From contig NZ_CP060715.1 of assembly GCF_014396165.1 (NCBI RefSeq), forward strand, positions 660,001 through 692,000: 32,000 nucleotides of DNA. The letters run 5' to 3'. Shown here in pieces: positions 5,851 through 29,494 of the stretch. The position numbers and the translations under genes are program-made. Numbering within the stretch: position 1 is the first letter of the stretch; every line of letters begins with the position of its first letter. The notes under the pieces are model-generated. The model saw only the letters and a program-made list of their open reading frames with translations, made no database searches and was not told the origin of the DNA. The DNA is from Erysipelothrix inopinata. GTDB lineage: Bacteria > Bacillota_I > Bacilli_A > Erysipelotrichales > Erysipelotrichaceae.

Positions 5851-6762
5851 ATGAAAAAAATAGGATTAGCATTGTCTGGTGGCGGGATTAAATCAATATC
5901 ACAGGTTCCCGTAATTAAAGCCATTCTTAAAGAAGAAGTAAGTATTGATATGGTCTCTGGAACATCGATGGGATCGGTAATTGCAGCGCTTGTTGCATGT
6001 GGATTGGATGCGGACAAACTTGAAGAAGTGGTTCTTGCACTTGAAAGTGAAATTAAAGAGAAACGTTTGTTCTCAAGACCCAGTGCCAAAGTTATTCCAT
6101 TCATGTCGAAAGAAAAACTAATTGGTGGTTTTGTGGATGGGGAAGAGCTTGAAATAGTAATGGAACGTACCCTTCGTGAACTCGGTATCTATTGGATTAA
6201 GGATGTAAAGATTCCGCTTGCAATTCCATCAGTAGATGTTGTGACAGGAAAAATTGTACTCTTTGTTTCACATCCTGAACAATTTAAGAATATTCATCCT
6301 GATTGGGAGATTGTGACTGATATATCGCTAGCCAAAGCGGTGCGTGCGTCGTGTTCTTTCCCATTTGTAATCGCAGCATGTGAACATGAGGGATATGTTT
6401 TAGTGGATGGTGGTATTCGTATGAATTTACCGCTTGATCCTCTCTATAGCTATGGTGCTGATAAAACAATTGCCGTTACAATGCATACCAACGAAGAATT
6501 TAGAAACTTAGAATCTTTAATGGGAATGGCAGTACGCATTATGGACTTAATGCGCATTGAGGAAGATCAACATATCATTGAACGTGCGGATGTACACATT
6601 AATATCCCTCTCGATGATGTCTGGGTTTTTGAAGTAGGTAAAGGTATGGAAACAATTGTTCAAGGAGAACAAGCGGTCAGTGATCACTTGGCTGAAATTA
6701 AGAATCTAACCAAAGAGGAGTCCTTACTCGAAATCTTGAAAGAGTGGCTCAATGTTAAGTAA
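5851..6762 (+). CDS. patatin-like phospholipase family protein
   Basis: The oxyanion motif SGGGIKS, the nucleophile elbow GTSMG and the Asp of the dyad in VDGGIRMN are present. The RBS is gaggtg. Confidence 0.85.
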   Translation: MKKIGLALSGGGIKSISQVPVIKAILKEEVSIDMVSGTSMGSVIAALVACGLDADKLEEVVLALESEIKEKRLFSRPSAKVIPFMSKEKLIGGFVDGEELEIVMERTLRELGIYWIKDVKIPLAIPSVDVVTGKIVLFVSHPEQFKNIHPDWEIVTDISLAKAVRASCSFPFVIAACEHEGYVLVDGGIRMNLPLDPLYSYGADKTIAVTMHTNEEFRNLESLMGMAVRIMDLMRIEEDQHIIERADVHINIPLDDVWVFEVGKGMETIVQGEQAVSDHLAEIKNLTKEESLLEILKEWLNVK

Positions 6763-7570
6763 ACAGCTAAACAATGGTGTCGAAATACCTGTGCTCGGTT
6801 TCGGTACTTACCGTCTTTTGGGCCAGGATGCTTATGACATCGTGACTGAAGCAATTAAAGTAGGGTATCGCCATTTCGATACTGCGACAGTTTATAATAA
6901 TGAAGCAGAAGTGGGTCAAGCAATTTTAGATAGTGGTATTGAAAGAGAGTCCTTCTTTGTTACTACGAAACTCTATAATGATGATCAACTTGGCCACGAT
7001 CATATCATTCAAACTTTTGAGAAATCTTTAGATTTGCTTCAAATGGATTATGTTGATTTATATTTGATTCACTGGCCACTACCTGTCTCGAAAGAGTCTT
7101 GGAAAGCGCTGGAAGAGATTTATAAATCTGGAAAGGCGCGTGCTATTGGTTTGTCTAACTTTGAGATAGAGCACTTGAAATTAATTGAAGAGATTGCGAC
7201 TGTTAAGCCAATGGTTAACCAATTTGAGAGACATCCTTATTTACAACAAAATGAACTTCATGACTATTGTGTTGAACAAGGAATAGTCTGTGAAGCATGG
7301 ATGCCGATTGCTCGCGGAGAAGCGAATAATGAACCGCAACTTATAGATATTAGTAATAAGCACAATAAGACAGTGCCGCAGATTCTACTGAGATGGCAAA
7401 TTCAATCGGGATACGTTGTATTCCCTAAAACAAAAACGTTGACTCGAGTTCAAGAGAATTTTGATATCTTTGATTTTGAATTGAATGCTGCTGAAATGGA
7501 AATTATTAATAGTTTGGATTCTCAAACACGTTATGGTACTGATCCACGTAAATATAATTTTGTAGAGTGA
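6752..7570 (+). CDS. aldo/keto reductase (2,5-diketo-D-gluconate reductase-like)
   Basis: LGFGTY.., HFDTA..Y.NE, the LYLIHWP motif and ..IGLSNF.. are present in a typical 272-aa AKR. It overlaps the patatin gene by 11 nt. Confidence 0.9.
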   Translation: MLSKQLNNGVEIPVLGFGTYRLLGQDAYDIVTEAIKVGYRHFDTATVYNNEAEVGQAILDSGIERESFFVTTKLYNDDQLGHDHIIQTFEKSLDLLQMDYVDLYLIHWPLPVSKESWKALEEIYKSGKARAIGLSNFEIEHLKLIEEIATVKPMVNQFERHPYLQQNELHDYCVEQGIVCEAWMPIARGEANNEPQLIDISNKHNKTVPQILLRWQIQSGYVVFPKTKTLTRVQENFDIFDFELNAAEMEIINSLDSQTRYGTDPRKYNFVE

Positions 7571-7595
7571 TTTCTTCGGAAATCATTCTTTTTTG
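7568..7595 (+). terminator. rho-independent terminator after the AKR gene
   Basis: The stem TGATTTC / GAAATCA has a TTCG tetraloop and is followed by ttcTTTTTT. Confidence 0.85.
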
Positions 7596-7605
7596 TTCAA
7601 TTAGA

Positions 7606-7634
7606 TTGAGTTCTAATGCGTTAGTTGGTATACT
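7606..7634 (+). promoter_or_regulatory. candidate sigmaA promoter of the P-type ATPase gene
   Basis: The -35 is TTGAGT (7606-7611), the spacer is 17 nt, and the extended -10 is TGgTATACT (7626-7634). Confidence 0.5.
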
Positions 7635-9586: not shown

Positions 9587-10225
9587 CTAAGTGTTTGATT
9601 TACGAGTTTCCGTGATGATTTTACGAATCTTTTGAGCGTTGGAAGAAATTTCTTTAGAAGTTCCTGTTGTGAGAAGTCCTCCGAAACCACAGACATCGGT
9701 TCCATTGAGGATCCATGTTTCTAGGTTATCAAGTGTGATACCTCCACTTGCAAGAATTGGCATATCTGGGAGTGGTGTTTTAAACACCTTAGTAAGTTTT
9801 GGTCCATAAAAGTCTGAAACAGGGAATGCTTTGATAAACGTAGCACCTAATGATAGAGCATCCACAGCTTCTGTTAGGCTTGTACATCCTGGTGCATAGG
9901 GTATTTGATATCGATTGCAAATCTTCGCAACTTCTTCACTGTAGGTAGGTGCGATGATGAACTCTGCCCCATGAAGAATTGCGTGGCGCGCTGTTTCTGA
10001 ATCCAATACTGTTCCGGCACCTACGCAAAGTTGTGAACCGAATTCGTCTTTGAGTCCTTTGATAATATCGCCAGCACTGTTTAGTGTATAACTCATTTCC
10101 ATAACAGGGACACCACCATCAATACAACCGTTTGCGATTTCGATAGCGCGTGATAGTGACTCGGTTCTTACGATGGCAAGAGCACCAACATCATACATAA
10201 ATTTAGTTGTGGTTAATTTTTTCAT
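9587..10225 (-). CDS. eda: KDPG / 4-hydroxy-2-oxoglutarate aldolase (Eda family)
   Basis: The start at MKKLTTTKFM follows RBS aaggagaa (internal to track ORF 9587..10342). GAGTVL, the Schiff-base lysine context FIKAFP and SGGI are present; length is 212 aa. Confidence 0.85.
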   Translation of the reverse strand: MKKLTTTKFMYDVGALAIVRTESLSRAIEIANGCIDGGVPVMEMSYTLNSAGDIIKGLKDEFGSQLCVGAGTVLDSETARHAILHGAEFIIAPTYSEEVAKICNRYQIPYAPGCTSLTEAVDALSLGATFIKAFPVSDFYGPKLTKVFKTPLPDMPILASGGITLDNLETWILNGTDVCGFGGLLTTGTSKEISSNAQKIRKIITETRKSNT

Positions 10226-10406
10226 ACAGTAGTTCTCCTTTATATTTTCATTATATCGAGACCCAAGCGGAGCGCAACACTTGGAGTCATGAACCCAAAA
10301 TATCAAAATGTCATTAGAGCCACTAATACAAAGGAATAACAAACATTAATTCAGAGTTTGTTTAATCTTTGTCAAAGTTGTGTACAAAAGTTGGACTCTA
10401 ATTGTT

Positions 10407-10435
10407 TTGAACCGCTTTCAGATGTGTCTTACAAT
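10407..10435 (+). promoter_or_regulatory. candidate promoter of the ascorbate-family PTS operon
   Basis: The -35 is TTGAAC (10407-10412), the spacer is 17 nt and the -10 is TACAAT (10430-10435). The -35 overlaps a near-cre element, TTGAACCGCTTTCA. Confidence 0.4.
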
Positions 10436-10468
10436 GTGGTTGTAATGAAAGAGATAGGAGTGATACAG

Positions 10469-10909
10469 TTGTTGGAACTAATAACCAAAGATCTAATTCA
10501 GCTTAATATTGAAGCGACAGATCGTGAAGATGCGATTCGCAAGGCAGCGCAGCCTTTGGTAGAAGCAAACAAAATTACAGATTCCTACGTTGATGGAATT
10601 ATCAAATCAATGAAAGAATCAGGACCATATTTTGTCATTATACCTCATGTTGCCATGCCCCATGCTAGACCTGAAGAAGGTGCATTGGAAAATGCAATCG
10701 GCATTACAACATTAAAAACTCCTATTGAGTTTATGAATGCAAGTAACGATCCCGTCAAATATGTTCTAACGTTAAGTGCAACAGGTAATGACGAACACTT
10801 AGAAACGTTAGCAAGCTTGGCAGAGCTCGTTGAAGAAGAATCATTCTTCGAACTTCTTGATAAAGCGACATCAGCACAAGAAGTTATTGATTATTTAAAA
10901 GAAAGATAA
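10469..10909 (+). CDS. PTS EIIA, ascorbate/mannitol type (UlaC-like)
   Basis: GPYFVIIPHVAMPHARPEEG carries the phosphorylatable His context found in UlaC. The TTG at 10469 lies 8 nt after AGGAG. The ATG at 10445 has no RBS and would sit at the predicted TSS, and the track start at 10358 is unlikely. Confidence 0.85.
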   Translation: MLELITKDLIQLNIEATDREDAIRKAAQPLVEANKITDSYVDGIIKSMKESGPYFVIIPHVAMPHARPEEGALENAIGITTLKTPIEFMNASNDPVKYVLTLSATGNDEHLETLASLAELVEEESFFELLDKATSAQEVIDYLKER

Positions 10910-10921
10910 GGAGGAAATACT

Positions 10922-11200
10922 ATGTATAAAGCATTAGTAGCTTGTAGAGCAGGAATGGGATCAAGTATCCTATTGAAGATTAAAGTTGATCAAGTCATTA
11001 AAGAAAATGACTTTCCAATTGTGACAGAACATGGAAATCTTGATTCACTGATTGGATTTAATGGAGACTTAATCGTTACAATGGAAGACTTAACTGAAGA
11101 ACTTAAAGATAAAGTTAAGTACGCAGTAGGGATTCGTAACATTGTCGATAAAGATGAAATTAAAGAAAAACTAGAAGCATATTTAGAAACTCAAAAATAA
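10922..11200 (+). CDS. PTS EIIB, ascorbate type (UlaB-like)
   Basis: The 92-aa product has an N-terminal VACRAGMGSS active-site Cys loop. The RBS is aaggagga. Confidence 0.85.
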   Translation: MYKALVACRAGMGSSILLKIKVDQVIKENDFPIVTEHGNLDSLIGFNGDLIVTMEDLTEELKDKVKYAVGIRNIVDKDEIKEKLEAYLETQK

Positions 11201-11229
11201 TATAAAAGGGAAAGAAGGAGGAGTAAAAA

Positions 11230-12516
11230 ATGATTGATGCATTACTTGGTCAGGTTCGAAATACGGCTTTAATCGTCGGACTTGTGGCTTGTATTGGTTT
11301 ATTACTACAAAAGAAATCCGCACAAGATGTAATTTCAGGAACAGTAAAAACAATTCTTGGATTTATGATCTTCAATATTGGTTCAGCAGCCTTATCTGGT
11401 GTTGTTAATAACTTCTCGGCATTGTTTAATGCTGGGTTTGGAATTGATGGGGTAACAACTCAGGTTGAAATTGCGACGAGTTTGGCACTGAATACCTATG
11501 GTACTGAAGTGGCTCTCGTATTCGTATTAGGATTTGTATTTAACTTAATTATTGCGAAATATACTCGATTTAAAGCTATTTTCTTAACAGGACAACATTT
11601 CCTATACTTTGCATGTGTTCTTGCACTTGTATTTATCGGAGTTGGCGCACCAACTTGGGTAACAATTATCGCTGGTGGATTTATTCTTGGATTCTGTGGA
11701 GCAGCATTACCTACACTCTCACAACCATACATGAACAAAATCACTGGTACAGATACATTGGCAATGGGTCACTTCAATAATATTGGATACGCATTCTCAG
11801 GATGGATTGGAAAATTCTTTGCAAAATCAAAAGAAGCTTCTGAAAAGAATCCACCTAAATTACCTAAATTCTTTGAATTATTCCGTGACTTCGTATTCTC
11901 AGTTGCACTCTTCATGGTTGTATTATTCTATATTGCTGTGATTGCTTGTGCTGTAAACGGAAAACTTGACATGGTTAAAGAAATGGCTGGAAACGATATC
12001 TGGTTTATCTATCCATTCTTACAAGGTCTCCAATTTGCAGCTGGTATGAGCGTACTTATCTACGGTGTTCGTCAATTTATCGCTGAAATTACAGCAGCAT
12101 TCGTTGCTATCTCTGAAAAATATATTCCTAACTCAAAACCAGCGGTCGATTGCCCTGCAATCTTCCCATTTGCACCTAACGCTGTAATCATTGGTTTCAT
12201 TGGATCATTACTTGGAGGATTCTTCGGAATGTTCTTAATGGTTATGTTCAAGAGCCCAGTTATTATGATTCCTGCAGCCGGTATTTGTTTCTTCTCTGGT
12301 GGTACAGCTGGTGTCTTCGGGGATGCATACGGTGGATGGAAAGGTGCTCTTGTAGGATCATTCATCATCGGTATTGGATTGGTTCTCTTACCACTTATCC
12401 TATATCCTGCATTCGCTGACTTAGGTATTATGGGAGCATCATTCCCTAATATTGATTACAACATTATTGGTGGATTACTTTACAAGATTATTTCATTCTT
12501 TAAAGGTCTATTCTAA
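11230..12516 (+). CDS. PTS EIIC, ascorbate family (UlaA/SgaT-like)
   Basis: The 428-aa polytopic membrane protein has UlaA-like composition and length. The RBS is gaaggagga. Confidence 0.88.
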   Translation: MIDALLGQVRNTALIVGLVACIGLLLQKKSAQDVISGTVKTILGFMIFNIGSAALSGVVNNFSALFNAGFGIDGVTTQVEIATSLALNTYGTEVALVFVLGFVFNLIIAKYTRFKAIFLTGQHFLYFACVLALVFIGVGAPTWVTIIAGGFILGFCGAALPTLSQPYMNKITGTDTLAMGHFNNIGYAFSGWIGKFFAKSKEASEKNPPKLPKFFELFRDFVFSVALFMVVLFYIAVIACAVNGKLDMVKEMAGNDIWFIYPFLQGLQFAAGMSVLIYGVRQFIAEITAAFVAISEKYIPNSKPAVDCPAIFPFAPNAVIIGFIGSLLGGFFGMFLMVMFKSPVIMIPAAGICFFSGGTAGVFGDAYGGWKGALVGSFIIGIGLVLLPLILYPAFADLGIMGASFPNIDYNIIGGLLYKIISFFKGLF

Positions 12517-12523
12517 AACAATA

Positions 12524-12562
12524 AAACCTAAGAACAAGGATCCCTTGTTCTTAAGGTTTATT
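12524..12562 (+). terminator. strong intra-operon hairpin / probable leaky terminator after EIIC
   Basis: The core stem is 11 bp, TAAGAACAAGG atc CCTTGTTCTTA. AAACC/GGTTT extends it with one bulge, and it is followed by TTTATTT. Confidence 0.55.
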
Positions 12563-12596
12563 TGGGGGACATAAAAAAGAGAGTTGAGGATTAAAA

Positions 12597-13196
12597 ATGG
12601 ATCAAATAGATAGTTATTTAGATATAGTGTTCGATGAATTGAACATTTTAAAAGAATCGATTGATAAAGATGCCCTTAATAATGCGACATCACTTATTTT
12701 AGATTCTGAATCAAAAGGTGGTAGAGTTCATGTTACCGGTATTGGGAAACCTAGTTATGTGGCAGGATATGTAGCATCACTACTCTCATCAACGGGAACA
12801 CGTTCTTATGTTCTTCATGGTACAGAAGCTGTCCATGGAAGTTCGGGACAAGTTGCTCCTGGCGATGTTGTTATTGCAATTTCAAATAGTGGAGAAACAG
12901 TAGAATTAAAAGGTACAGTTGAAACTCTATTAAATAATGGTGCAAAAATCATTGCCGTTACAAGATCAGAGTCATCTTGGCTAGCACAACATGCAAATGT
13001 AACGTTGAAAGCTGGTGTTAATCAAGAAGGTGATAACTTGAACAAGCCGCCTCGTGCATCAATTTTGGCAGAGATGATTGTATTACAAGTATTATCCGTT
13101 CTTTTGCAAAATGAACGTCAACTTAATTCTCAAGAATACTTGAAGTGGCATCCAGGAGGAGCTTTGGGTGCATCAATTAGAAATGAGGAAAAATAA
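12597..13196 (+). CDS. KpsF/GutQ-like SIS-domain sugar-phosphate isomerase lacking CBS domains (arabinose-5-phosphate isomerase-like)
   Basis: GIGKPS..STGT..HGTEAVHGSSGQVAPGDVVIAISNSGET resembles KpsF (GMGKSG..HPGEAAHGDLG..VVIAISNSGES). The protein ends just after WHPGGALG, the point where the CBS pair of KpsF would begin. Confidence 0.8.
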   Translation: MDQIDSYLDIVFDELNILKESIDKDALNNATSLILDSESKGGRVHVTGIGKPSYVAGYVASLLSSTGTRSYVLHGTEAVHGSSGQVAPGDVVIAISNSGETVELKGTVETLLNNGAKIIAVTRSESSWLAQHANVTLKAGVNQEGDNLNKPPRASILAEMIVLQVLSVLLQNERQLNSQEYLKWHPGGALGASIRNEEK

Positions 13197-14077
13197 TGGA
13201 AATTAAAGGAATTATACCAGCAATGGTAACACCCATGGATGAGAATCAAAAAGTAGATGTGGAAGCAACACATAGACATATAGACTTTCTTATTAGCAAA
13301 GGTGTCCATGGATTATTTATTTTAGGAACTAACGGTGAGTTCCACGTTCTTAATAAACAAGAAAAAATTGATTTTGCTAAGATTGTGGTAGACTATACTC
13401 AAGGACGTGTCCCTGTTTATGCAGGTGCTGGAGCATGTGGAACTCAAGACGCAATTGAACTCGCACAAGGCCTTGAATCAGTAGGTGTTGATGCTTTATC
13501 AGTTATTACACCTTACCTTATCAAAGTAAGCCAAAATGAGCTTGTTGACCATTATAAGATGGTTGCGAATGCCGTTAAGATTCCAATTATTTTGTATAAT
13601 ATTCCTGCAAATACAGGTATTAACATTGATCCTGAAACAGTAGCACAACTTATTGATGTTCCAAATATTCTAGGAATTAAAGATAGTAGTGGAAACATGG
13701 AAAATACCCAAGGTTATATTGACTTAGGGAAAGATCACGACTTCAGTGTCCTCGTCGGATCTGATTCTAAAATATTAGAAGGCTTAAAACGTGGCGCAGT
13801 GGGTTCAGTTGCAAGTACAGCTAATGCGATTCCAGAACATATTGTTGGAATATACGATGCCTTCCATGCAAATGAAATAGAAAAAGCAGAACAAATGCAA
13901 AAAGATGTCGACTACATTCGTGCAGTGGGTAAATTAGCAACTGTTCCATCGATGATTAAACGTTGTGTCACTGTTCGTGGCAACAATGTTGGAGAAGCAC
14001 GCTTCCCAGTAAGTGCTGTGGGATCCAAATTTGATCAAGAAATTAAAGAAATGTTTGCTGAATACGGAATACAATAA
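13196..14077 (+). CDS. DapA/NAL-superfamily class I aldolase (2-keto-3-deoxy-sugar-acid aldolase-like)
   Basis: GTNGEF, YNIPANTG and the Schiff-base Lys in GIKDSSG (KDG-aldolase/HOGA-like rather than DHDPS GIKEATG) are present. The ATG overlaps the SIS gene stop (TAATG). Confidence 0.82.
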   Translation: MEIKGIIPAMVTPMDENQKVDVEATHRHIDFLISKGVHGLFILGTNGEFHVLNKQEKIDFAKIVVDYTQGRVPVYAGAGACGTQDAIELAQGLESVGVDALSVITPYLIKVSQNELVDHYKMVANAVKIPIILYNIPANTGINIDPETVAQLIDVPNILGIKDSSGNMENTQGYIDLGKDHDFSVLVGSDSKILEGLKRGAVGSVASTANAIPEHIVGIYDAFHANEIEKAEQMQKDVDYIRAVGKLATVPSMIKRCVTVRGNNVGEARFPVSAVGSKFDQEIKEMFAEYGIQ

Positions 14078-14087
14078 TTGAAAGGGG

Positions 14088-16175
14088 TTGTTGGATTTGG
14101 ATAAAGATATTATTCAACTAATACGAAAGCTCGTTAATCGTTCATTTATGACATTAACAGAGATTCAAAACGAAACAGACGCTACGAAGCGCCAAATTAT
14201 GTATCGCTTAGAAAAGTTAAATATTTTGATAGAAGACAACAACCTTATTCCAATTACAATTGGAAATCAAAAAGAATTCATCATTACGAATGATACACGT
14301 GATTTTCTCGTGGAATTTTTGTATGAAATCAATGACGACATTGATTACTATTTTGACCGCGAAGAACGTAAGATTTACATTTATTTACGTTTGTTTGTAG
14401 ATCGAGAATATGTATCCTTACAGCATTTCATATCAACACTTCAAATCAGTAAGTCGACAATTATTCAAGATATTAATGAATTGAGTCACGAGTTGAAAGA
14501 ACAAAATATTGTGTTGAAAAATGATCGTACTGAAGGATACTACCTTGAAGGTTCAGAAATGAACATTCGACGTTTCATGATGAAACTACTTATTTATTCA
14601 ATTTCTGAACATCAAAATACATTGGTTTTTGATAAGTTTGTTAATGATCTTCATCTATCAACGTTTGATTATTCAAAATTAATTATTCAAGAACTCGCGG
14701 AAACTTACGATATATCGTTCGTCGAAGATCGATTAACAGAATTTATTTATATTTATATTTTCTTATCGACACGTATTATTGAGGGAAGGCACGTAAATCC
14801 TAATGCTTACAACATGCCTAACCTTGAAATGATTCAAACATTTAAAGAATACAAATTTACAAATGCACTCATTGATTACTTCCCAAATAAAGAATGTATT
14901 AGTGATCTTGATCGCAAATACATTAGTTCATGGATTTTAGGAATATCAGTAGGTAATGTTGAGGATATGACCGAGGATTGTTTAATCATTGGTCAACTTG
15001 TTGGAAAAATCATGACGCGATTTGAACTGTTAAGTGGGGTTCACTATCGTGATTCTGAGACGATTTTCCGTCATATTTTTTCTCACTTCAGACCAGCCTA
15101 TTATCGTCTGCTTTTTAAGCTTCCAATTTACAATCCTTTAAAAAATAGAGTTATAGACGAGTATAATGGTCTTTATCTTCTGGTTAAAGAAACCATGAAA
15201 CCATTCGCAAGTATTTTTGGTGAAGAGATTAATGATGACGAATTAGCATACCTAACGATGCATTTTGCATCGGTATATACTGCGAAACGTGAAGAAGAAG
15301 TTATTCGACGTAAAAAAGCGTTGATTGTATGTTTGAATGGTATTGGATCATCAGTTATCCTATATTATGAGCTTAGTAGTCTCTTCCCTGAGCTTGAATT
15401 CCAATATCCGATCGAAGTTTCGCAATTTAATATTGATGAGTATCCAGCTGATATTGTGTTTACAACTCAATATTTCAGAGGACTTAGAAATCTACCAATT
15501 CCTGTCATTAAGGTAAGTCCCATCATGGATGCTTCTGAACGATATAGTGTATTTAGAGAAGTCAGTACACAGCTCAATTTCGATGGATCCAAACATCCAT
15601 CATATGATGAGATATCCACAATTTTAAGAAAGCACGTGGGTCATGTAGAGCAAGAACAACAACTCATTCATGAGTTAATGAGTGTCTTCTTACAAATACC
15701 GACGTCAATTCAACCTGTTGCTGAAGAAGCAATCACATTGAGAAGTATTATTTCAGAGGATTTGGTGTCACTTAAAGTTGATTCTCAAACTCCGGAAGAA
15801 GTATTACAATTATCCGGTGATTGTTTACTCAATGCGGGGATGGTAACTCAACAATATGTGGATTCAGTATTATCAATCCAAAAAATGAATCCAACGTATT
15901 ATGTAATTGCCCCTCACATTGCACTTCCGCATACAACGCCAACCAAAGGGGCGTTGAAGCTAGCAATGGGAATCACAACGCTTAAAACTCCCATTTACTT
16001 TGGGAATAATGAAAAAGATCCAGTTAAATATGTTTTCTATCTCTCCGCAATTGATAATGAAAGTCATATTGGTGCTATGACTGAACTTCTGGAACTTATG
16101 AATGATGAAAAATTCCTATCACTCTTAGACGAAACTGAAGATGTTCAAGAAGTTCTTGACTACATTGCTCTTTAA
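14088..16175 (+). CDS. PRD-domain transcriptional activator, MtlR/BglG family (HTH-PRD-PRD-EIIB(Gat)-like-EIIA(Mtl)-like)
   Basis: The 695-aa protein has an N-terminal HTH region and central PRD-like repeats. The EIIB-like loop is ALIVCLNGIGSS (Cys present). The C-terminal EIIA-2 domain is YYVIAPHIALPHTTP...DPVKYVFYLSA. The TTG start follows aaagggg. Confidence 0.85.
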   Translation: MLDLDKDIIQLIRKLVNRSFMTLTEIQNETDATKRQIMYRLEKLNILIEDNNLIPITIGNQKEFIITNDTRDFLVEFLYEINDDIDYYFDREERKIYIYLRLFVDREYVSLQHFISTLQISKSTIIQDINELSHELKEQNIVLKNDRTEGYYLEGSEMNIRRFMMKLLIYSISEHQNTLVFDKFVNDLHLSTFDYSKLIIQELAETYDISFVEDRLTEFIYIYIFLSTRIIEGRHVNPNAYNMPNLEMIQTFKEYKFTNALIDYFPNKECISDLDRKYISSWILGISVGNVEDMTEDCLIIGQLVGKIMTRFELLSGVHYRDSETIFRHIFSHFRPAYYRLLFKLPIYNPLKNRVIDEYNGLYLLVKETMKPFASIFGEEINDDELAYLTMHFASVYTAKREEEVIRRKKALIVCLNGIGSSVILYYELSSLFPELEFQYPIEVSQFNIDEYPADIVFTTQYFRGLRNLPIPVIKVSPIMDASERYSVFREVSTQLNFDGSKHPSYDEISTILRKHVGHVEQEQQLIHELMSVFLQIPTSIQPVAEEAITLRSIISEDLVSLKVDSQTPEEVLQLSGDCLLNAGMVTQQYVDSVLSIQKMNPTYYVIAPHIALPHTTPTKGALKLAMGITTLKTPIYFGNNEKDPVKYVFYLSAIDNESHIGAMTELLELMNDEKFLSLLDETEDVQEVLDYIAL

Positions 16176-16230
16176 ACCAACGTCAATAAGATCAAACTCC
16201 CATCAAGAGTGGTGGTATTTATTCCCAGGA

Positions 16231-16258
16231 AAAAGACAGCTTATGCTGTCTTTTATTC
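16231..16258 (+). terminator. rho-independent terminator after the regulator gene
   Basis: The stem AAAAGACAGC / GCTGTCTTTT has loop ttat, and the T-run continues after it. Confidence 0.85.
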
Positions 16259-16377
16259 GTTTGGACATAGAAATGAACATAACATATAAAATTTCCTAAG
16301 TCATAAACGCTAACCTTGGTGCGTTGATATAAAATTTAATGTTACAATAAATATAAATAGTGAAAGAGAGAGGTAGT

Positions 16378-17559
16378 ATGGAAAATTTAAAAGAAAAATC
16401 CCTAGCCTTACATAAAGAGTTAGAAGGAAAAATTAGTGTTGAAAATAAGATGGATGTCACATCTTTAGAACAATTAAGTCTCTTATATTCACCTGGAGTT
16501 GCAGAGCCTTGTTTGGAAATTAAAGAAGATGTGGAAAAAGCATATGAATATACTTGGAAAGGCAACACAGTGGCTGTTGTTAGTAACGGGAGTGCCGTTT
16601 TAGGACTTGGTAACATCGGACCTGAAGCAGGACTACCAGTTATGGAAGGAAAAGCAATGTTATTCAAAGCTTTCTCAGGTCTCAATGCGATTCCGCTTGT
16701 GATTGATGCGAAGAAACCTGAAGAAATTATTTCGTTTTGTAGAATGCTTGCACCAACAGTGGGTGGTATCAATCTTGAAGATATTAAAGCGCCAGAATGT
16801 GTTTATATTGAACAAACATTAAAGAAAGAACTAAATATTCCAGTATTTCATGATGATCAACACGGAACTGCAATCGTTGTTGTTGCAGGACTTATCAACG
16901 CATATCGACTCATGAACAAAGATTTGAAAGATGCGAAAGTAGTTGTATCTGGAACAGGAGCTGCAGGAAGTTCAATCATTCGTATGCTTCATACATACGG
17001 TGTTAAGAAAATTTATGCAACAAACAGTCTTGGAGTCATCAACAAGAAATTCGCAGATGAGTATAACTTTGTAGTTCATGAGCTTTGTGACTATCTTTCA
17101 GATTTAGATGGAGAAAAAACACTCGCAGATTGTATGAAGGGTGCTGATATCTTTATTGGAGTTTCACTTGCTAATTTAGTATCAAAAGATGATGTACGTA
17201 GTATGAATAAAGATGCTGTCGTCTTCGGACTTGCAAATCCAAATCCAGAAATTCCTTATCCAGATGCAAAAGAAGCAGGTGCACGTATCGTTGGAACGGG
17301 TCGTTCAGATTATCCTAACCAAGTTAACAATGTTCTTGCGTTCCCAGGTATTTTCAAAGGAGCATTGTCAGTACGTGCAAGCCAAATCAACGAAGAAATG
17401 AAGATCGCTGCAGCCGAAGGAATTGCGTCCTTAATTTCTGATGAAGAATTAAGTGAAGAATTCATTATTCCAAATGCATTTGATCCACGAGTTGCTGATG
17501 TTGTAGCAAAAGCAGTTGCTGATAAGGCAATTGAAACAGGAGTCGCTAAGGAGGACTAG
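16378..17559 (+). CDS. NAD(P)-dependent malic enzyme (short, about 390-aa type)
   Basis: The start MENLKEKSLALHKE follows RBS gagagg. LSLLYSPGVAEPC, the VVSNGSAVLGLGNIG, FHDDQHGTA and GTGAAG dinucleotide motifs are present. Confidence 0.9.
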   Translation: MENLKEKSLALHKELEGKISVENKMDVTSLEQLSLLYSPGVAEPCLEIKEDVEKAYEYTWKGNTVAVVSNGSAVLGLGNIGPEAGLPVMEGKAMLFKAFSGLNAIPLVIDAKKPEEIISFCRMLAPTVGGINLEDIKAPECVYIEQTLKKELNIPVFHDDQHGTAIVVVAGLINAYRLMNKDLKDAKVVVSGTGAAGSSIIRMLHTYGVKKIYATNSLGVINKKFADEYNFVVHELCDYLSDLDGEKTLADCMKGADIFIGVSLANLVSKDDVRSMNKDAVVFGLANPNPEIPYPDAKEAGARIVGTGRSDYPNQVNNVLAFPGIFKGALSVRASQINEEMKIAAAEGIASLISDEELSEEFIIPNAFDPRVADVVAKAVADKAIETGVAKED

Positions 17560-18927
17560 ATGTCAACAATCAAAGATATTTATGGAAGTATTGAAATACC
17601 TGAAGGTGTTTATTGGGGAGCTAACACGCAAAGAAGTCTTCTTAATTTTCCAATCGGTGTGGAGAAAATGCCAGAAGATTTGATTGATGCGCTTGTCATT
17701 TTAAAGAAAGCAGCGGCTGAGGCAAACCTCAAACATAACAAATTAGATGAACCACGTGCACATGCAATCATGAATGCATGCGATAGAATCTTGACAGGTG
17801 AGTACTACGATCAATTTCCACTTGCCATTTGGCAAACAGGAAGTGGTACCCAAACTAATATGAATGCGAATGAAGTTATTGCTAATATGGCGAATGAAGC
17901 ATTGGGCGAGAAACTTGTTCATCCTAATGATCACGTTAATTGTGGCCAAAGTTCCAACGACGTCTTTCCAACTGCCATGCATATTTGTACCGTTGAGATA
18001 TTGAAAAATAGACTTATTCCAAGTATGCATTCAATGGATAGTACATTCTCTATTCTGAGTGAAAAGTACGGTTCAATCCTCAAAACAGGACGAACACACC
18101 TTCAAGATGCAACACCGATTTCTTTTGGACAAGAAATCAGCGGATGGCAATATATGTATGTTGAAGGTATTAAGCAAATTGAAGATGCACTCGTTTATTT
18201 ACGAAATCTTTCAATAGGTTCTACAGCAGTAGGAACGGGATTAAACACTTATGAAGGATTTGACCAAGAGGTATGTAACATTCTTAATAAATATTTAGAA
18301 GAAAGTTTTAAACCAACGCCTAATAAATTTCATGCAATGAGTACCAAGGATGCGTTCGTATTCAACCATGGCGCTCTGAATGCTATTGCAAGTAACTCGA
18401 TGAAAATGGCTAACGATATCCGTTGGTTAGCGAGTGGTCCACGATGTGGATTGGGAGAAATAAATCTGCCTGCAAATGAAGCTGGAAGCTCTATTATGCC
18501 AGGGAAAGTAAACCCAACACAGTGTGAGGCACTGACGATGACTTGCGTACAAGTTATGGCGAATAACCAAGCTGTTGTGATTGGATCCTCACAAGGGAAC
18601 TTTGAACTGAATGTGTATATGCCATTAATTATCTATAATACATGGCAATCGATTGTTCTATTATCAGATGCTCTAAATTCATTTAACGAACGCTGCTTGA
18701 GCGGTATCACGGTTAATGAAGATAAAATGGAAACCAACCTTACAACCTCCCTCATGACTGCTACATTTCTAAACCAAAGATTTGGATATGATGAAACAGC
18801 TAAAATAGTGAAAGAAGCTCACCAAGAAGGCTTAAGTATAAAAGATGTAGTTGTTGGGCATGACCTTATGACTTCGGAAGAATTTGATGTATTCTTTGAT
18901 TATCAAAAGATGATTAAGCCCGAATAA
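17560..18927 (+). CDS. fumC: class II fumarate hydratase
   Basis: The signature GSSIMPGKVNPTQCEA, TGSGTQTNMN and HPNDHVN.GQSSND are present. The ATG directly abuts the malic enzyme TAG. Confidence 0.95.
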   Translation: MSTIKDIYGSIEIPEGVYWGANTQRSLLNFPIGVEKMPEDLIDALVILKKAAAEANLKHNKLDEPRAHAIMNACDRILTGEYYDQFPLAIWQTGSGTQTNMNANEVIANMANEALGEKLVHPNDHVNCGQSSNDVFPTAMHICTVEILKNRLIPSMHSMDSTFSILSEKYGSILKTGRTHLQDATPISFGQEISGWQYMYVEGIKQIEDALVYLRNLSIGSTAVGTGLNTYEGFDQEVCNILNKYLEESFKPTPNKFHAMSTKDAFVFNHGALNAIASNSMKMANDIRWLASGPRCGLGEINLPANEAGSSIMPGKVNPTQCEALTMTCVQVMANNQAVVIGSSQGNFELNVYMPLIIYNTWQSIVLLSDALNSFNERCLSGITVNEDKMETNLTTSLMTATFLNQRFGYDETAKIVKEAHQEGLSIKDVVVGHDLMTSEEFDVFFDYQKMIKPE

Positions 18928-18941
18928 AGAGAGGTGATACG

Positions 18942-20849
18942 ATGAATTCGAGACAACGAAAAATATTAGAATATCTCTCGGATCAGAAAACTTGGATTAA
19001 AGGAAAAGAGCTTTCACGAATAGTGGGGGTAACGGACCGGACAATCCGTTCCGACATTGATTCATTAAATCAAGAACATCCTGGAATTGTCGAATCGAGC
19101 ACACGAGAAGGGTATCAGATAGATATTAGTAAGTACCAATCTCTAAGCTATGCAGATGTTGATGTAATTCCGCAAACACCGGATGAACGGAGTATTCATA
19201 TTATTAAAATTCTTCTGTTTTCTAAGAAACGTCAAAAAATCATGGATTTACAAGAAGAACTATATGTAAGTGAACACACCATCGAAGGTGATATAAAACG
19301 GATTCGTGAATTAATCAAACCCTATGTTGGTCTAAAATTGATACGTGAAGATAACAGTATTTATTTCCAAGGAAATGAACACGTTAAACGTAAAATTTAT
19401 CGTGACTTACTAACAAACGAAATTAAAGATAACTTCTTGAATATCAATCGAACTGCACTATTATACAGTCGTTTCGATTTGGTACAAGTTACGAAAGTAT
19501 TCGAAGATACCTTAGAAGAATTTAATTATTCTGTAAGAGAAACAGCAATACCAATGATTGTGGTTCATATTGGAATTACCATTGAACGAATGTTGAGTGG
19601 CCACTATCTAAGCTTGGAATCGGTAAATAAACAAGCAGGTGATGGCATTGAGTTTGAAATTACGAAGTGTTTCTTTGAAAAAATAACGAAGATGGTACCT
19701 GTTGAATACTCTGAAGCGGAAGCGCGGGGACTTGCGAATATTCTTATGGGATATCAAAATGCTTATCATTTAAGTGAAACCATAGAGTATAAAGGTAAGA
19801 CTGTTGATGTTGCGAAGTTGTTGGATGATGTGACAGATGTTCTACTGGATACATTTGACTTGGATTTCTCTCAAGACAACGATTTCAAGAGCGGACTTCA
19901 TCTTCACATTCAATCACTCGTTCTAAGAATGAAAAATGAATCGGTGATTCCTAACGCTCACCTTCAAGAAGTGAAGAAATCATATCCCTTAATTTTTGAG
20001 ATGGGGTTGGTTATTGGACGCTTAATTGGTAATGCCTTTGGATTTGAATTATCAGAATCTGAAGTAGGTTTTATTTCACTACATATTGGTGCAGCTTATG
20101 ATCGTCTCTCTGTGAAGAAAAAACATCAAGTACTCTTGATTGCACCAAATAATCGGAGTCTTTCGAAACTTACCAAAGGTAAAATTACGAATATGTTCAA
20201 AGATCGATTGGAGATTGCGGAAATATCTGAATACTATGTCGAAAAAGAAGTTATCAACATGAATATTGATTTAATTATAACTACTTTACCGATTGATCAT
20301 AGTCTTGAAATCGAGACGGTACAGATATCGATGTTTGTAAACCATGAAGACGAAAGTAAGATATTTAGAGTGTTAAACGAGTTGGACAAGGAACAGTTTA
20401 ACCTCGAATTTGGTAACCAATTTGGTACCTTAATTGATGAACGATTCTTCTTCAAAGATCTTGATAAAGAAACACCTGAAGAAGTAATTGATTATATGAG
20501 TCAAGAATTATATGAAAATGGTATCGTGTCAAAACACTTTAAAGAGTCTATCTTTGATAGAGAGGCGATGTCATCAACGTCATTTATTTATTCGATTGCA
20601 ATTCCTCATCCATTGGACCTTGAAAGTCAGCAATCAAAAGTTGCGGTAGCACTTCTCAAAAAACCAATACAATGGGGAAGTTACAATGTGAAACTGGTGA
20701 TGATGCTTGCAATTACTGAGGAAGACAGTGCAACAATGTGGTTATTCTTTGACTGGTTGTCAGAGACTATTACGAATGCATCGAAGATGTCAAAGTTATT
20801 ACAATCTAAAAATAGAAATGAATTCGTTCATTGGATGATGAACGACTAG
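18942..20849 (+). CDS. PRD-domain transcriptional regulator, LicR-like (HTH-PRD-PRD-EIIB-like-EIIA-like)
   Basis: The 635-aa protein has an N-terminal HTH (KELSRIVGVTDRTIRSDI) and two PRD-like segments. The EIIB-like segment VLLIAPNNRS has no Cys. The C-terminal EIIA-2-like domain has SIAIPHPLD. The RBS is gagagg. Confidence 0.85.
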   Translation: MNSRQRKILEYLSDQKTWIKGKELSRIVGVTDRTIRSDIDSLNQEHPGIVESSTREGYQIDISKYQSLSYADVDVIPQTPDERSIHIIKILLFSKKRQKIMDLQEELYVSEHTIEGDIKRIRELIKPYVGLKLIREDNSIYFQGNEHVKRKIYRDLLTNEIKDNFLNINRTALLYSRFDLVQVTKVFEDTLEEFNYSVRETAIPMIVVHIGITIERMLSGHYLSLESVNKQAGDGIEFEITKCFFEKITKMVPVEYSEAEARGLANILMGYQNAYHLSETIEYKGKTVDVAKLLDDVTDVLLDTFDLDFSQDNDFKSGLHLHIQSLVLRMKNESVIPNAHLQEVKKSYPLIFEMGLVIGRLIGNAFGFELSESEVGFISLHIGAAYDRLSVKKKHQVLLIAPNNRSLSKLTKGKITNMFKDRLEIAEISEYYVEKEVINMNIDLIITTLPIDHSLEIETVQISMFVNHEDESKIFRVLNELDKEQFNLEFGNQFGTLIDERFFFKDLDKETPEEVIDYMSQELYENGIVSKHFKESIFDREAMSSTSFIYSIAIPHPLDLESQQSKVAVALLKKPIQWGSYNVKLVMMLAITEEDSATMWLFFDWLSETITNASKMSKLLQSKNRNEFVHWMMND

Positions 20850-20858
20850 GAGGAAACT

Positions 20859-21188
20859 ATGGAAGAATTAGAATTAGTAAGTTTTAAAATAATTAGTGCC
20901 GTAGGCGCTGCGAAGTCACTCTTTATGGAAGCTATGATGTATGCTCAAAAGAACGATTTTGTGAAAGCACATGAATTAATTGAAGAAGGTGAAAGCCATC
21001 GTGTTCAAGGACATGAAGCTCACTTTGAATTAATCCAAAAAGAAGCAAGTGGTGAAAAAACTGAAATAAATCTGATCTTGATGCATGCAGAAGATCAATT
21101 GATGTCTGCAGAAACAATTAAAATTTTAGCGGAACAACTTATTAAAAGTTACGAAACTATCAACGAACTTGCACAAAAAATTAAATAA
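20859..21188 (+). CDS. PTS EIIA, lactose/cellobiose/chitobiose family
   Basis: The 109-aa helical protein has the characteristic MHAEDQLM phospho-His context. The RBS is aggagga. Confidence 0.9.
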   Translation: MEELELVSFKIISAVGAAKSLFMEAMMYAQKNDFVKAHELIEEGESHRVQGHEAHFELIQKEASGEKTEINLILMHAEDQLMSAETIKILAEQLIKSYETINELAQKIK

Positions 21189-21192
21189 ACGA

Positions 21193-21230
21193 AAAAGATA
21201 TCTTCCTGAAATCAAGAAGGTATCTTTTTT
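21193..21230 (+). terminator. rho-independent terminator after EIIA(Lac)
   Basis: The stem AAAGATATCTTC / GAAGGTATCTTT contains one G-U pair and is followed by TTTTT. Confidence 0.8.
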
Positions 21231-21634
21231 AGTGGTATTTTTCCAGAAAAAGTGTAAAAAGGCATGAAACTATATTTATTAGTCTCGTCTATATCGACTT
21301 GGTGATTGAAATCTTCGAAATTCATATCTGTTGAATATCATCTGGATTTTTCATAAAACCGTGTTTTATCTGTCATAAAAAATATAAACTTTTGGCACAT
21401 TGGGATGGACATTTTTGATATGAGACATTGCAGATGTTTTTTCGTTCTATTATTGTAACGAAATCGCTCTTGAAAAATAGGGTATTTTTTGAATGACATG
21501 AATCTTTCATGATTATTTCACGATGGTATTTAATGCTTACGTAAGAACGTTCCGTTGTCTTAGGAAATTAAATTATAAGCAAGCGATTACATAGGAAGTT
21601 ATACTATAGTTACAATAAGGAGGGAGAATATCCT

Positions 21635-21958
21635 ATGAAACGTGTATATTTATTCTGTAACGCTGGGATGTCAACAAGCTTGTTAGCAAGTAAAATGCAA
21701 ACAGTTGCGGACGCTCATAAGTTACCGATTGAAGTGAAAGCATTCTCTGATTCAAAGATGGATGCCATTGTTCAGGAATTTCATCCAGATGTTATTTTGC
21801 TAGGGCCACAAATTAAATATAAATTTGAAGAAACTAAAGCAAAATATGGAGATACAGGTGTTCCTATCGAAGTAATCGATTTAGAAGATTATGGGAAAGT
21901 CGATGGAGAACGTGTATTAAAGAAAGCAATTATGCTTATTAAAGGAAAAGGAGAATAA
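21635..21958 (+). CDS. PTS EIIB, lactose/cellobiose/chitobiose family
   Basis: The 107-aa product has the N-terminal active-site Cys loop LFCNAGMSTSLL. The RBS is aaggaggg. Confidence 0.9.
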   Translation: MKRVYLFCNAGMSTSLLASKMQTVADAHKLPIEVKAFSDSKMDAIVQEFHPDVILLGPQIKYKFEETKAKYGDTGVPIEVIDLEDYGKVDGERVLKKAIMLIKGKGE

Positions 21959-21961
21959 CAT

Positions 21962-23314
21962 ATGTTTGATTGGCTAGAAAATACGATGGCGCCAATCGCG
22001 GAAAAACTAAGTACAAATAAAGTGCTTGTTGCAATCCGTGATGGTTTCTTAATCAGTACGCCATTAATTATTGTTGCATCAATATTCTTATTGATCGCGA
22101 ACTTCCCTATTACTGGATATCCAGAATTTATGGAAGGAATCTTTGGGGCAGGGTGGGACAGCCACCTATTAGTAGTATCAAATGCTACAATTAATATGAT
22201 TGCATTGCTTAACGTATTAGGTATTGCTTACTCATATGCAAAACAATTAAAAGTTGAACCAATTGCTGGTGGTGTGGTTGCTCTTGTATCATATCTTATC
22301 ATTACACCACAAACACACGAATTATTCTTAAATGCTGATGGTAAACCATTTAGAGGGTTTGCTTTCTCAAACTTAAACTCACAAGGTTTATTCCTTGCTA
22401 TGATTACTGCTATTATTGCAGTTCAAATCTTCGCGTTTGTAACTAAAAAAGGATGGGTTATTAAACTTCCTGAAGGTGTTCCACCTGCAGTTATGGGATC
22501 TTTCGCTGCTTTAGTTCCAAGTATGTTCGTAATGATTACTTTCTTCTTGGTACGTTTAGTATTCGTTAATACTTCATTTGGAAGTGCACAAAACTTTATC
22601 TTTACAGTATTACAAACACCATTGATGGGTCTTGGAACCAATAACTTCTTTGAAGTAATTTACCAATTCTTATCAAACCTATTCTGGTTCTTTGGTATTA
22701 ATGGACCAGCTATTACAAATACTGTATTCTCACCAATTCACAACACAATGACATATGCTAACCAAGCAGCTTATATTGCTGGTGAAACATTACCATACAT
22801 TTTCACAGGACCATTCTCAGACTTCTTTGGAAACTACGGTGGTGGGGGAAGTACCCTATCATTAGTACTCTTAATGGTTACAATGGGTAAATCCCAACGT
22901 ATGAAACAACTTGGTCGCTTGTCAATTGTTCCTGGTATCTTCGGAATCAACGAAATGATTATCTTTGGTCTTCCAATCGTGTTGAACCCAATCATTCTTA
23001 TTCCATTCTTACTCGTACCAGTTATGAATATTGCTTTATCAACAGCAGCAACAATTATGGGAATCATTCCTTATACAACAGGAATTGCATTACCATGGAC
23101 AACACCAATCTTCTTCTCGGGATGGTTATCAACAGGTAGTCTCTTTGCTGGAGTATTCCAATTAGGTCTTCTAGCACTAGGATGCTTAGTTTACTACCCA
23201 TTCTTCAGAATCTTGGACAAACAATATCTTGAAGATGAAATGAAACCACAAGATACAGTGGTAGACGAATTAGATGATATCTCACTTGATGATATTTCAT
23301 TTGATGATCTATAA
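21962..23314 (+). CDS. PTS EIIC, lactose/cellobiose/chitobiose family
   Basis: The 450-aa polytopic protein starts like ChbC/CelB (..LENTMAPIAEKLSTNKVLVAIRDGF..). It has an unusual acidic C-terminal tail, DELDDISLDDISFDDL. Confidence 0.9.
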   Translation: MFDWLENTMAPIAEKLSTNKVLVAIRDGFLISTPLIIVASIFLLIANFPITGYPEFMEGIFGAGWDSHLLVVSNATINMIALLNVLGIAYSYAKQLKVEPIAGGVVALVSYLIITPQTHELFLNADGKPFRGFAFSNLNSQGLFLAMITAIIAVQIFAFVTKKGWVIKLPEGVPPAVMGSFAALVPSMFVMITFFLVRLVFVNTSFGSAQNFIFTVLQTPLMGLGTNNFFEVIYQFLSNLFWFFGINGPAITNTVFSPIHNTMTYANQAAYIAGETLPYIFTGPFSDFFGNYGGGGSTLSLVLLMVTMGKSQRMKQLGRLSIVPGIFGINEMIIFGLPIVLNPIILIPFLLVPVMNIALSTAATIMGIIPYTTGIALPWTTPIFFSGWLSTGSLFAGVFQLGLLALGCLVYYPFFRILDKQYLEDEMKPQDTVVDELDDISLDDISFDDL

Positions 23315-23327
23315 GAATTAATGTAAT

Positions 23328-23384
23328 TAAACACGAAGCGACTTGTGAAAGACCGATAAGGACTTCATGAGTTTGCTTCGTTTC
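23328..23384 (+). other. long imperfect hairpin in the EIIC-to-next-gene spacer
   Basis: The arms AAACACGAAGCGACTTGTGAAAG and CTTCATGAGTTTGCTTCGTTT include a perfect core ACGAAGC/GCTTCGT plus ACT/AGT and TGAA/TTCA. No clean U-run follows, and the next RBS (taggagga) comes immediately after. Confidence 0.35.
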
Positions 23385-23400
23385 ATTTAGGAGGAACATT

Positions 23401-23919: not shown

Positions 23920-23928
23920 GGAGTAGCT

Positions 23929-25999: not shown

Positions 26000-26009
26000 A
26001 GGTATTAGT

Positions 26010-26966: not shown

Positions 26967-26967
26967 T

Positions 26968-28077: not shown

Positions 28078-28089
28078 GAGGAGATCAAA

Positions 28090-29484: not shown

Positions 29485-29494
29485 GGAGATTAAC

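Follow-up and report, generated by a model that had tools for sequence, protein, structure and literature searches.

A 32,000-nt stretch of the Erysipelothrix inopinata genome (contig NZ_CP060715.1, positions 660,001 to 692,000; hereafter the window, with positions counted from its first nucleotide) carries, at positions 9587 to 16254, an operon with a divergent gene at its head. Together they encode an Asc-family phosphotransferase system (PTS), a SIS-domain protein related to KpsF and GutQ, two class I pyruvate aldolases and a PTS-controlled activator. We propose, with about even confidence, that this operon is a PTS-dependent catabolic unit that breaks down a 3-deoxy-2-ulosonic sugar acid. 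The likeliest such acid is KDO (3-deoxy-D-manno-octulosonate), a signature sugar of Gram-negative lipopolysaccharide (LPS) and of plant rhamnogalacturonan II. The general scheme, in which an ulosonic acid passes through a PTS and a pyruvate aldolase to an aldose phosphate that is then converted by a SIS isomerase, is probably right as judged from domain content and gene order. That the substrate is specifically KDO or a close octulosonate is evenly balanced at best. An interpretation of this kind had been put forward in a first-pass annotation of the window, and the present analysis supports it in part.

In the proposed route, of which we infer every substrate and every reaction, the Asc-family EIIABC would import KDO and phosphorylate its terminal primary hydroxyl to yield KDO-8-phosphate (KDO-8-P). 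The DHDPS-family aldolase, or an HpcH-type enzyme in other genomes, would then cleave KDO-8-P into pyruvate and D-arabinose-5-phosphate (A5P), with the Eda-like aldolase either helping or handling a related substrate such as 2-keto-3-deoxy-6-phosphogluconate (KDPG). The SIS enzyme, which lacks CBS domains, would isomerise A5P to ribulose-5-phosphate (Ru5P) and so deliver it to the pentose phosphate pathway. Finally, the MtlR-type activator would tie expression of the operon to the PTS phosphorylation state and to the substrate, and it probably controls the divergent eda gene as well.

The SIS protein (199 aa; plus strand, 12597 to 13196) is a KpsF/GutQ-like, putative A5P/Ru5P isomerase. It matches positions 1-152 of the 268 in the kpsF profile TIGR00393 with 122 bits, a score kept under the whole-protein cut-off of 203.7 by the missing CBS half, and it matches positions 20-200 of 328 in KdsD. 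As had been described in the first-pass annotation, tandem CBS domains are absent from the protein, which stops where the CBS pair would begin. The pair is not essential to arabinose-5-phosphate isomerases (APIs): c3406 of E. coli CFT073 and the API of B. fragilis also lack CBS domains. The nearest solved relative of the window protein is PDB 5uqi/5vhu (39% identity), identified here as c3406, which we take to be a biochemically proven API without CBS domains. Like the window protein, both c3406 and CtAPI of Clostridium tetani consist of a single SIS domain of about 200 aa, and the catalytic Lys, His, Glu, Glu and His positions are common to c3406 and the window protein; CtAPI is reportedly a real API in an LPS-less Gram-positive bacterium.

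A profile built on the window SIS family was compared with proteins of solved structure, giving 134 bits for c3406, 99 for KdsD and 97 for the B. fragilis API, as against 80 bits for the Listeria protein 3fxa, 57 for AF1796 and about 34 for hexulose-6-phosphate isomerase (PHI). By these scores the family groups with A5P isomerases and not with hexulose-6-phosphate isomerases, which answers a question of placement that the earlier annotation had raised. All five positions that we take to be catalytic in KdsD from mutagenesis and structure papers (K59, H88, E111, E152 and H193) are kept in the alignment, within the motifs GIGK, AVHG, SNSGE, QEGD and WHPGG. The Listeria protein 3fxa, which is CBS-less and KpsF-like and is said to be a glucose-6-phosphate (G6P) isomerase, lacks both the catalytic Lys (GCGTSG) and the first Glu (SKGGN). 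The window protein differs from c3406 in two motifs, with HGS(S/A)GQ instead of HGDLG and N(K/R)xPR instead of LAPT(S)S, and by its motifs it belongs to a subfamily of its own, of the 'HGS(S/A)GQ ... NKPPR' type.

We then examined the genomic surroundings of this subfamily. More than 7,600 relatives of the SIS protein are present in the protein collection; 80 genomic loci were taken, together with several obtained by exact look-up, and their neighbourhoods were annotated by open reading frame (ORF) calling and BLAST clustering with Pfam and NCBIfam scans. A single motif splits the SIS proteins into two groups, NK(P/A)PR marking group 1, to which the window protein belongs, and NRAPR marking group 2. 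Counts refer to loci with adequate flank (n = 45 for group 1 and n = 16 for group 2), and those for group 1 include close kin, notably about 15 Atopobium-like loci.

A PTS adjoins the SIS gene in 43 of the 45 group 1 loci (36 Asc-type and 7 Man-type), and at least one pyruvate aldolase is encoded in 44 (DHDPS-like in 39, Eda in 39 and HpcH/HpaI-type in 10). A sugar kinase lies beside the SIS gene in only one locus, and RbsD/FucU, TRAP transporter and GH172 genes are found in none (0/45 for each). SIS and DHDPS-like genes are adjacent in most group 1 loci; in the window, the start of the DHDPS-family gene and the SIS stop codon share 1 nt, making the two a translationally coupled pair. Split transketolase genes adjoin 12 of the 45 cassettes and transaldolase/FSA genes adjoin some, and both kinds of neighbour fit with a pentose-phosphate product. 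The hosts are Bacillota and Coriobacteriia, with Erysipelothrix, Peptacetobacter, Clostridium, Enterococcus, Niallia, Bacillus, Saccharibacillus, Megamonas, Atopobium, Olsenella and Tractidigestivibacter among their genera. The arrangement goes far beyond what chance would produce: this set of genes is repeated across two phyla, in dozens of loci. Direct observation covers the genes present, the identity of their domains, the retention of catalytic residues and this conserved synteny, variants included.

Another Erysipelothrix locus (L004 type) reduces the cassette to a PTS, one HpcH-type aldolase, a regulator and the SIS gene, with no Eda within 10 kb. By this gene content, a single pyruvate aldolase together with the isomerase seems to be enough, and it lends support to the idea of a minimal route with which the first-pass annotation had begun. 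The further statement that the route needs exactly the two enzymes encoded here agrees with the minimal Erysipelothrix locus but not with the cassettes at large, in which Eda is found in 39 of 45 and HpcH in 10.

Two kinds of additional ORF were seen in the group 1 loci. A small predicted membrane protein of approximately 160-250 aa, with no Pfam match, is kept in 26 PTS cassettes and is absent from that of the window; its gene sits either between those for EIIC and SIS or between those for DHDPS and Eda (for example, L001:11525-12007 and L014:9331-9930). ORFs of 680-1240 aa by Atopobiaceae-type cassettes also have no Pfam match, and these were taken as spurious ORFs of high-GC DNA.

The group 2 SIS proteins are 51-58% identical to those of group 1 and share the HGS.GQ and N.xPR motifs, and they occur in a different setting. 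None of the 16 group 2 loci contains a PTS, while 14 contain a ribokinase-like PfkB kinase, 7 an RbsD/FucU gene and 5 a TRAP transporter; a distant DHDPS-family lyase is present in 9 and GH172 in 2, with Eda, HpcH and transketolase found in none. The kinase scores 287.6 bits against TIGR02152, under the cut-off of 299.65. In two metagenome-assembled genomes, from Acidobacteriota and Heliobacteriaceae, kinase and SIS are fused into one protein (L067:8951-10618, 555 aa; L070, about 6016-7626, 537 aa). The complete genome of Marasmitruncus contains an operon with the order regulator-DctP-DctQ-DctM-DHDPS-PfkB-SIS-RbsD/FucU, and an Oscillospiraceae genome has an operon of the same type together with a YhcH-like DUF386 gene.

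The kinase being adjacent or fused to the SIS protein implies that the SIS substrate is the product of the kinase. As the kinase and mutarotase are of pentose type, the SIS protein is API-like and ribose-5-phosphate needs no special isomerase, D-arabinose-5-phosphate is the compound that this arrangement points to. If the lyase of the TRAP clusters yields pyruvate (C3) and a pentose (C5), its substrate would be a C8 3-deoxy-ulosonic acid, either KDO or one of its epimers. In both groups a means of phosphorylation always goes with the SIS protein, be it a PTS or a kinase; the two occur together in only 1 of the 45 PTS-type loci. This pattern suggests a catabolic enzyme acting on a sugar phosphate and argues against a purely regulatory role for the API; combined with the retained API catalytic residues, the complementarity of PTS and kinase makes A5P the likely substrate of the SIS enzyme.

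The binding proteins of the TRAP clusters bear on the identity of the acid. They are auto-named SiaP by PGAP, but their nearest structure is PDB 4pf6 (237 bits, E 3e-69, 38% identity), as compared with approximately 148 bits and 27-28% identity for the SiaP sialic-acid binders. 4pf6 is the RD1_0742 protein of Roseobacter denitrificans, reportedly crystallised in complex with KDO. In that organism (L091:7448-12891, CP000362), a PfkB gene on the opposite strand is followed by a DHDPS-family lyase, a GntR/FCD regulator and DctPQM, and the cluster may be a Gram-negative catabolic locus for an ulosonic acid, possibly KDO. The locus has no SIS gene, which would be consistent with the organism's possession of its own KdsD. 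DUF386 genes of the YhcH-like family, a family known from nan operons, occur in the TRAP clusters and, in the Asc-PTS cassette of Megamonas, immediately behind the SIS gene, and their presence in both settings ties the PTS and TRAP formats together. Sialidase-like BNR_2 genes were seen in two group 2 loci.

These comparisons lead us to suggest, with slightly less than even confidence, that KDO salvage in two interchangeable formats is widespread in Gram-positive gut, oral and animal-associated Bacillota and Coriobacteriia, and that both formats end in the new CBS-less API subfamily. In the PTS format, KDO would be converted to KDO-8-P and then to pyruvate and A5P by a new KDO-8-P aldolase activity in DHDPS- or HpcH-family enzymes; in the TRAP format, KDO would be split into pyruvate and D-arabinose, and the latter phosphorylated to A5P by the ribokinase-like kinase.

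Some SIS loci combine an ABC transporter or LacI regulator with GH172 (DUF2961), a ribokinase-like kinase and SIS (L035:5644-10579, L072:7810-10576 and L073:8991-12900). In addition, a GH172 (DUF2961) glycosidase gene adjoins the L067 fusion gene, with an Iso_dh-family dehydrogenase upstream. The GH172 clusters might conceivably represent a kinase-first route from alpha-D-arabinofuranosides to A5P and Ru5P; GH172 also includes alpha-D-fructofuranosidases, and published D-arabinan loci run an isomerase and then a kinase.

It seems improbable to us that the imported acid is instead a nine-carbon ulosonic acid of the KDN type or similar, with a 9-phosphate that is cleaved to pyruvate and a hexose-6-phosphate (mannose-6-phosphate or G6P) and a SIS protein that serves as hexose-6-phosphate isomerase. 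Such a substrate would suit the 80-bit score of the Listeria protein on the SIS family profile, the kinship of the TRAP-variant binding proteins with SiaP, a binder of Neu5Ac and KDN, whose name PGAP gives them, and the sialidase-like and YhcH-like genes of some clusters. However, the SIS family keeps the API Lys and Glu that are missing from 3fxa, and the proven APIs all score above that protein; the partner kinase is ribokinase-like and the mutarotase RbsD/FucU-like, both of pentose type, and the kinase is neither a hexokinase nor of the ROK family. The binding protein, moreover, is nearer to 4pf6 than to SiaP, and hexose phosphates are already served in cells by PGI and ManA.

Turning to the enzymes that would cleave the phosphorylated KDO of our proposal, the DHDPS/NanA-family class I pyruvate aldolase (293 aa; plus strand, 13196 to 14077; PF00701, E 2.9e-76) scores 220.9 bits against the dapA equivalog TIGR00674, passing its cut-off of 206.15, and its cluster mate is named 4-hydroxy-tetrahydrodipicolinate synthase by PGAP. 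Alignment to the DHDPS of M. jannaschii shows that Tyr107 and Arg138 of DapA are both missing, with PYL in place of PYY and YNIPANT in place of YNVPSRT. We take these residues (E. coli numbering) to be a member of the catalytic triad and the binder of aspartate semialdehyde, respectively. Among 40 cassette family members the position of the DapA Arg is variable, whereas the Schiff-base Lys (IKDSSG) is invariant (40/40). We therefore rejected a DapA identity, despite the equivalog score, since both residues are missing; from its sequence the protein is a pyruvate aldolase, and the 'DapA' label is probably a systematic misannotation.

The second aldolase of the window, an Eda-like class I pyruvate aldolase of the KDPG/KHG type (212 aa; minus strand, 9587 to 10225; PF01081, E 3.6e-30), is divergent from the PTS operon. 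Among solved structures the T. maritima KDPG aldolase 1wa3 is nearest to it, and the catalytic Glu (MEMSYT) and the Schiff-base Lys (IKAFP) align between the two. Against NCBIfam PRK06552 it scores 200 bits, under the cut-off of 238. HpcH was considered as a plain replacement for DHDPS, which is only partly true: in one Erysipelothrix lineage it stands in for both DHDPS and Eda, but at least 8 loci hold HpcH, DHDPS and Eda together. The redundant aldolases might divide the work by chain length, one taking KDPG derived from 2-keto-3-deoxygluconate (KDG) and another KDO-8-P, or by configuration at C4.

The prevalence of Eda is also the foundation of a second alternative, which we consider just as doubtful as the nine-carbon acid: the PTS would transport KDG or another hexonate or ketogluconate, Eda would be the working aldolase (KDPG to pyruvate and glyceraldehyde-3-phosphate), and the SIS and DHDPS-like proteins would act on a side branch or on another acid. 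Eda is present in most cassettes and looks like an intact KDPG aldolase, KDG is plentiful wherever pectin, alginate or glycosaminoglycans are broken down, and the Man-PTS variants, with a PucR/CdaR-like regulator and a 2-hydroxyacid dehydrogenase, resemble sugar-acid operons. Yet the L004-type cassette dispenses with Eda while keeping the PTS, the HpcH aldolase and SIS, and glyceraldehyde-3-phosphate requires no dedicated isomerase. The coupling of the SIS and DHDPS-like genes in the window and their adjacency in most loci likewise speak against a side branch, and the kinase-linked sister subfamily would be left unexplained.

For import and phosphorylation of KDO, the operon would rely on three PTS proteins, all on the plus strand: an EIIA of the Mtl/Fru/Asc type (10446 to 10909; PF00359, PTS_EIIA_2, E 8.5e-37), a 92-aa EIIB with its Cys in the motif ACRAGMGSS (10922 to 11200; PF02302, PTS_IIB, E 3.7e-12) and a 428-aa EIIC of the L-ascorbate (EIIC-GAT) family (11230 to 12516; PF03611, E 6.7e-106). 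The EIIC passes the cut-offs of both NF006919, 'PTS ascorbate transporter subunit IIC' (420 bits; cut-off 380), and NF009553 (471 bits; cut-off 423), and its 90% cluster mate carries the PGAP name 'PTS ascorbate transporter subunit IIC'. The best NCBIfam matches of EIIA (ascorbate EIIA, 96.9 bits) and EIIB (an ascorbate component) lie under their cut-offs. The activator (695 aa; plus strand, 14088 to 16175) is of the MtlR/LicR type, with HTH_Mga, Mga, PRD (one PRD detected) and PTS_EIIA_2 domains by Pfam and an EIIB-like segment, VCLNGIGSS, read directly from the sequence; homologues of it are present in 19 related loci.

The annotation taken at face value is very improbable. By that reading the PTS would carry L-ascorbate, the DHDPS-like protein would be a genuine DapA serving lysine or peptidoglycan synthesis, and the API would regulate or signal. 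The ascorbate and dapA cut-offs are passed, the PGAP names agree and a regulatory role for API in Gram-positives has been hypothesised (Cech 2017, according to PMC5758725), but no UlaD, UlaE, UlaF or UlaG family was found among the window ORFs scanned (at least 90 aa), as the first-pass annotation had noted, the DapA Tyr and Arg are absent, an HpcH aldolase takes the place of the DHDPS-like gene in a congener, and intact SIS catalytic residues, kinase fusions elsewhere and the alternation of PTS and kinase are the signature of a pathway enzyme.

Several observations weigh against KDO as the substrate or against parts of the route. The classical API motifs HGDLG and L(A/T)PT(S/T)S are absent from the window SIS protein, which has HGSSGQ and NKPPRAS instead, a swap that is subfamily-wide (HGS(S/A)GQ for HGDLG and N(K/R)xPRxS for LxPTxS), and the relatives of the protein, in the class of 39% identity, include a G6P isomerase. 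Cassettes hold up to three types of pyruvate aldolase, beyond what the proposed route needs, and we know of no pyruvate-forming KDO-8-P aldolase; the KDO aldolase EC 4.1.2.23, an old activity, acts on unphosphorylated KDO, giving pyruvate and D-arabinose. To our knowledge, the sole characterised substrate of an Asc-family PTS is L-ascorbate, and the general rule that such transporters take acidic sugars, on which the earlier annotation had leaned, rests on that one compound.

Further points of the same kind come from the related loci. A PGDH-like D-2-hydroxyacid dehydrogenase, for which the proposed route offers no function, is paired with the CBS-less SIS protein both in the uropathogenic E. 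coli island (L007:19590-24819, which is E. coli CFT073 c3405-c3409) and in the Man-PTS variants of the Gram-positive cassette (L010, L030, L054, L063 and L081); the Gram-positive ones also carry a PucR/CdaR-like regulator and HAD phosphatases. The identity of the 4PF6 ligand as KDO is presumptive. The DHDPS and PfkB proteins of R. denitrificans are only 22-26% identical to those of the Firmicutes, and orthology between them was rejected; similarly, identity between the DHDPS-like enzymes of the PTS variants and those of the TRAP variants is no higher than 22-25%. These low DHDPS identities mean that the parallel between the PTS and TRAP formats is one of composition, not of orthology.

The proposed KDO route resembles several known systems without matching any of them. 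The logic is that of nan clusters, in which an ulosonic acid is taken up, cleaved by a DHDPS/NanA-family lyase to pyruvate and an aldose, phosphorylated and converted to a central sugar phosphate. The TRAP variant has nan-like traits in its SiaP-like binding proteins and its YhcH-like and sialidase-like genes; nan clusters, however, have a ROK kinase and NanE where group 2 clusters have a ribokinase-like kinase, an API-like SIS protein and an RbsD/FucU-like mutarotase. Unlike in nan clusters, the PTS of the window replaces both transporter and kinase, and its lyase must therefore act on the phosphorylated acid. The same difference separates the window from systems of the EC 4.1.2.23/RD1_0742 type, in that it has neither TRAP transporter nor kinase and its aldolase would need to act on KDO-8-P; in Firmicutes, relatives of RD1_0742 (38% identity) head DHDPS-PfkB-SIS-RbsD operons.

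With the ula regulon, the window shares the Asc-family EIIA, EIIB and EIIC domain families, the ula enzymes being replaced by pyruvate aldolases and the SIS isomerase. The Salmonella dga system offers a likeness in its PTS for an acid sugar and its Eda-family aldolase, and Man-family PTSs are found in some related cassettes too; its dgaABCD genes reportedly encode a D-glucosaminate PTS that works with DgaE and with the Eda-like DgaF, which cleaves a phosphorylated 2-keto-3-deoxy acid. Unlike dga, the window has no ammonia-lyase, has an extra DHDPS-family aldolase and the SIS isomerase, and uses another transporter family. The c3406 locus of E. coli was rejected as an instance of the same cassette, since its neighbours are different (a PGDH-like dehydrogenase, MalY/PatB, a Glc-type EIIC and a BglG-type PRD antiterminator) and include no pyruvate aldolase. 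Our full-text literature search, which had most subscription journals outside its scope, returned no KDO catabolic pathway of such a kind and no description of such a cassette. What we propose to be new here is the adaptation of ulosonic-acid catabolism both to KDO and to uptake by a PTS.

Domain searches bore out the gene list of the first-pass annotation, every gene being found at its coordinates with its domains. The eda ORF extends as far as 10342, but at 10225 there is an ATG preceded by GGAGAA, a ribosome-binding site. In the divergent intergenic control region (10226 to 10445), a promoter-like TTGAAC-17-TACAAT lies at 10407-10435, a consensus match of a sort no commoner than in shuffled sequence. 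Candidate starts for EIIA are ATG 10446 and TTG 10471; GGAG precedes TTG 10471, and EIIA homologues are 146-151 aa long. A perfect hairpin with a 13-bp stem between the EIIC and SIS genes (12527 to 12555), terminator-like on both strands, may be an attenuator or a processing site, and a further terminator-like hairpin on the plus strand (16231 to 16254) closes the operon.

A second, unrelated module follows directly downstream (16360-30235). It begins with genes for malic enzyme (16360-17559), a class II fumarase (17560-18927) and a second MtlR-type regulator (18942-20849), after which come a Lac/Cel-family PTS IIA (20859-21188), IIB (21635-21958) and IIC (21962-23314). The 446-bp stretch between the IIA and IIB genes (21189-21634) contains no ORF of at least 90 aa. 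Beyond IIC lie genes for a GRDB-like protein of 172 aa, two M42 peptidases, an Asparaginase_2 protein of the isoaspartyl-peptidase or glycosylasparaginase type (26010-26966), an M20 peptidase, an aspartase/fumarase-like lyase (28090-29484) and then CutC. Its gene content suggests a route, linked to the PTS, for an amino acid or peptide that is glycosylated or of the isoaspartyl kind, in which aspartate would be turned into fumarate, malate and pyruvate.

Cluster mates of the window proteins at 90% identity or more are assigned to Erysipelothrix sp., a genus of Erysipelotrichia within the Bacillota. It is reasonable to regard the host as an LPS-less bacterium, and the puzzle posed by API in such bacteria has been raised before (Cech 2017, cited by PMC5758725). 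If our reading of the operon is true, the use of an LPS-pathway isomerase in LPS-less bacteria, a question open since an active API was found in C. tetani, would be explained, and the orphan API genes of these organisms would gain a physiological role. The route would be the first complete one for the catabolism of KDO, which all Gram-negative envelopes contain and which also occurs in plant pectin, and it would include a new aldolase activity (KDO-8-P to pyruvate and A5P) that is possibly useful for the synthesis of ulosonic acids. The labels 'ascorbate PTS', 'DapA' and 'SiaP' would then be corrected as misannotations across thousands of genomes. For Erysipelothrix and the other Gram-positive commensals and pathogens that carry the cassette, it would mean cross-feeding on the debris of Gram-negative neighbours or on dietary fibre.

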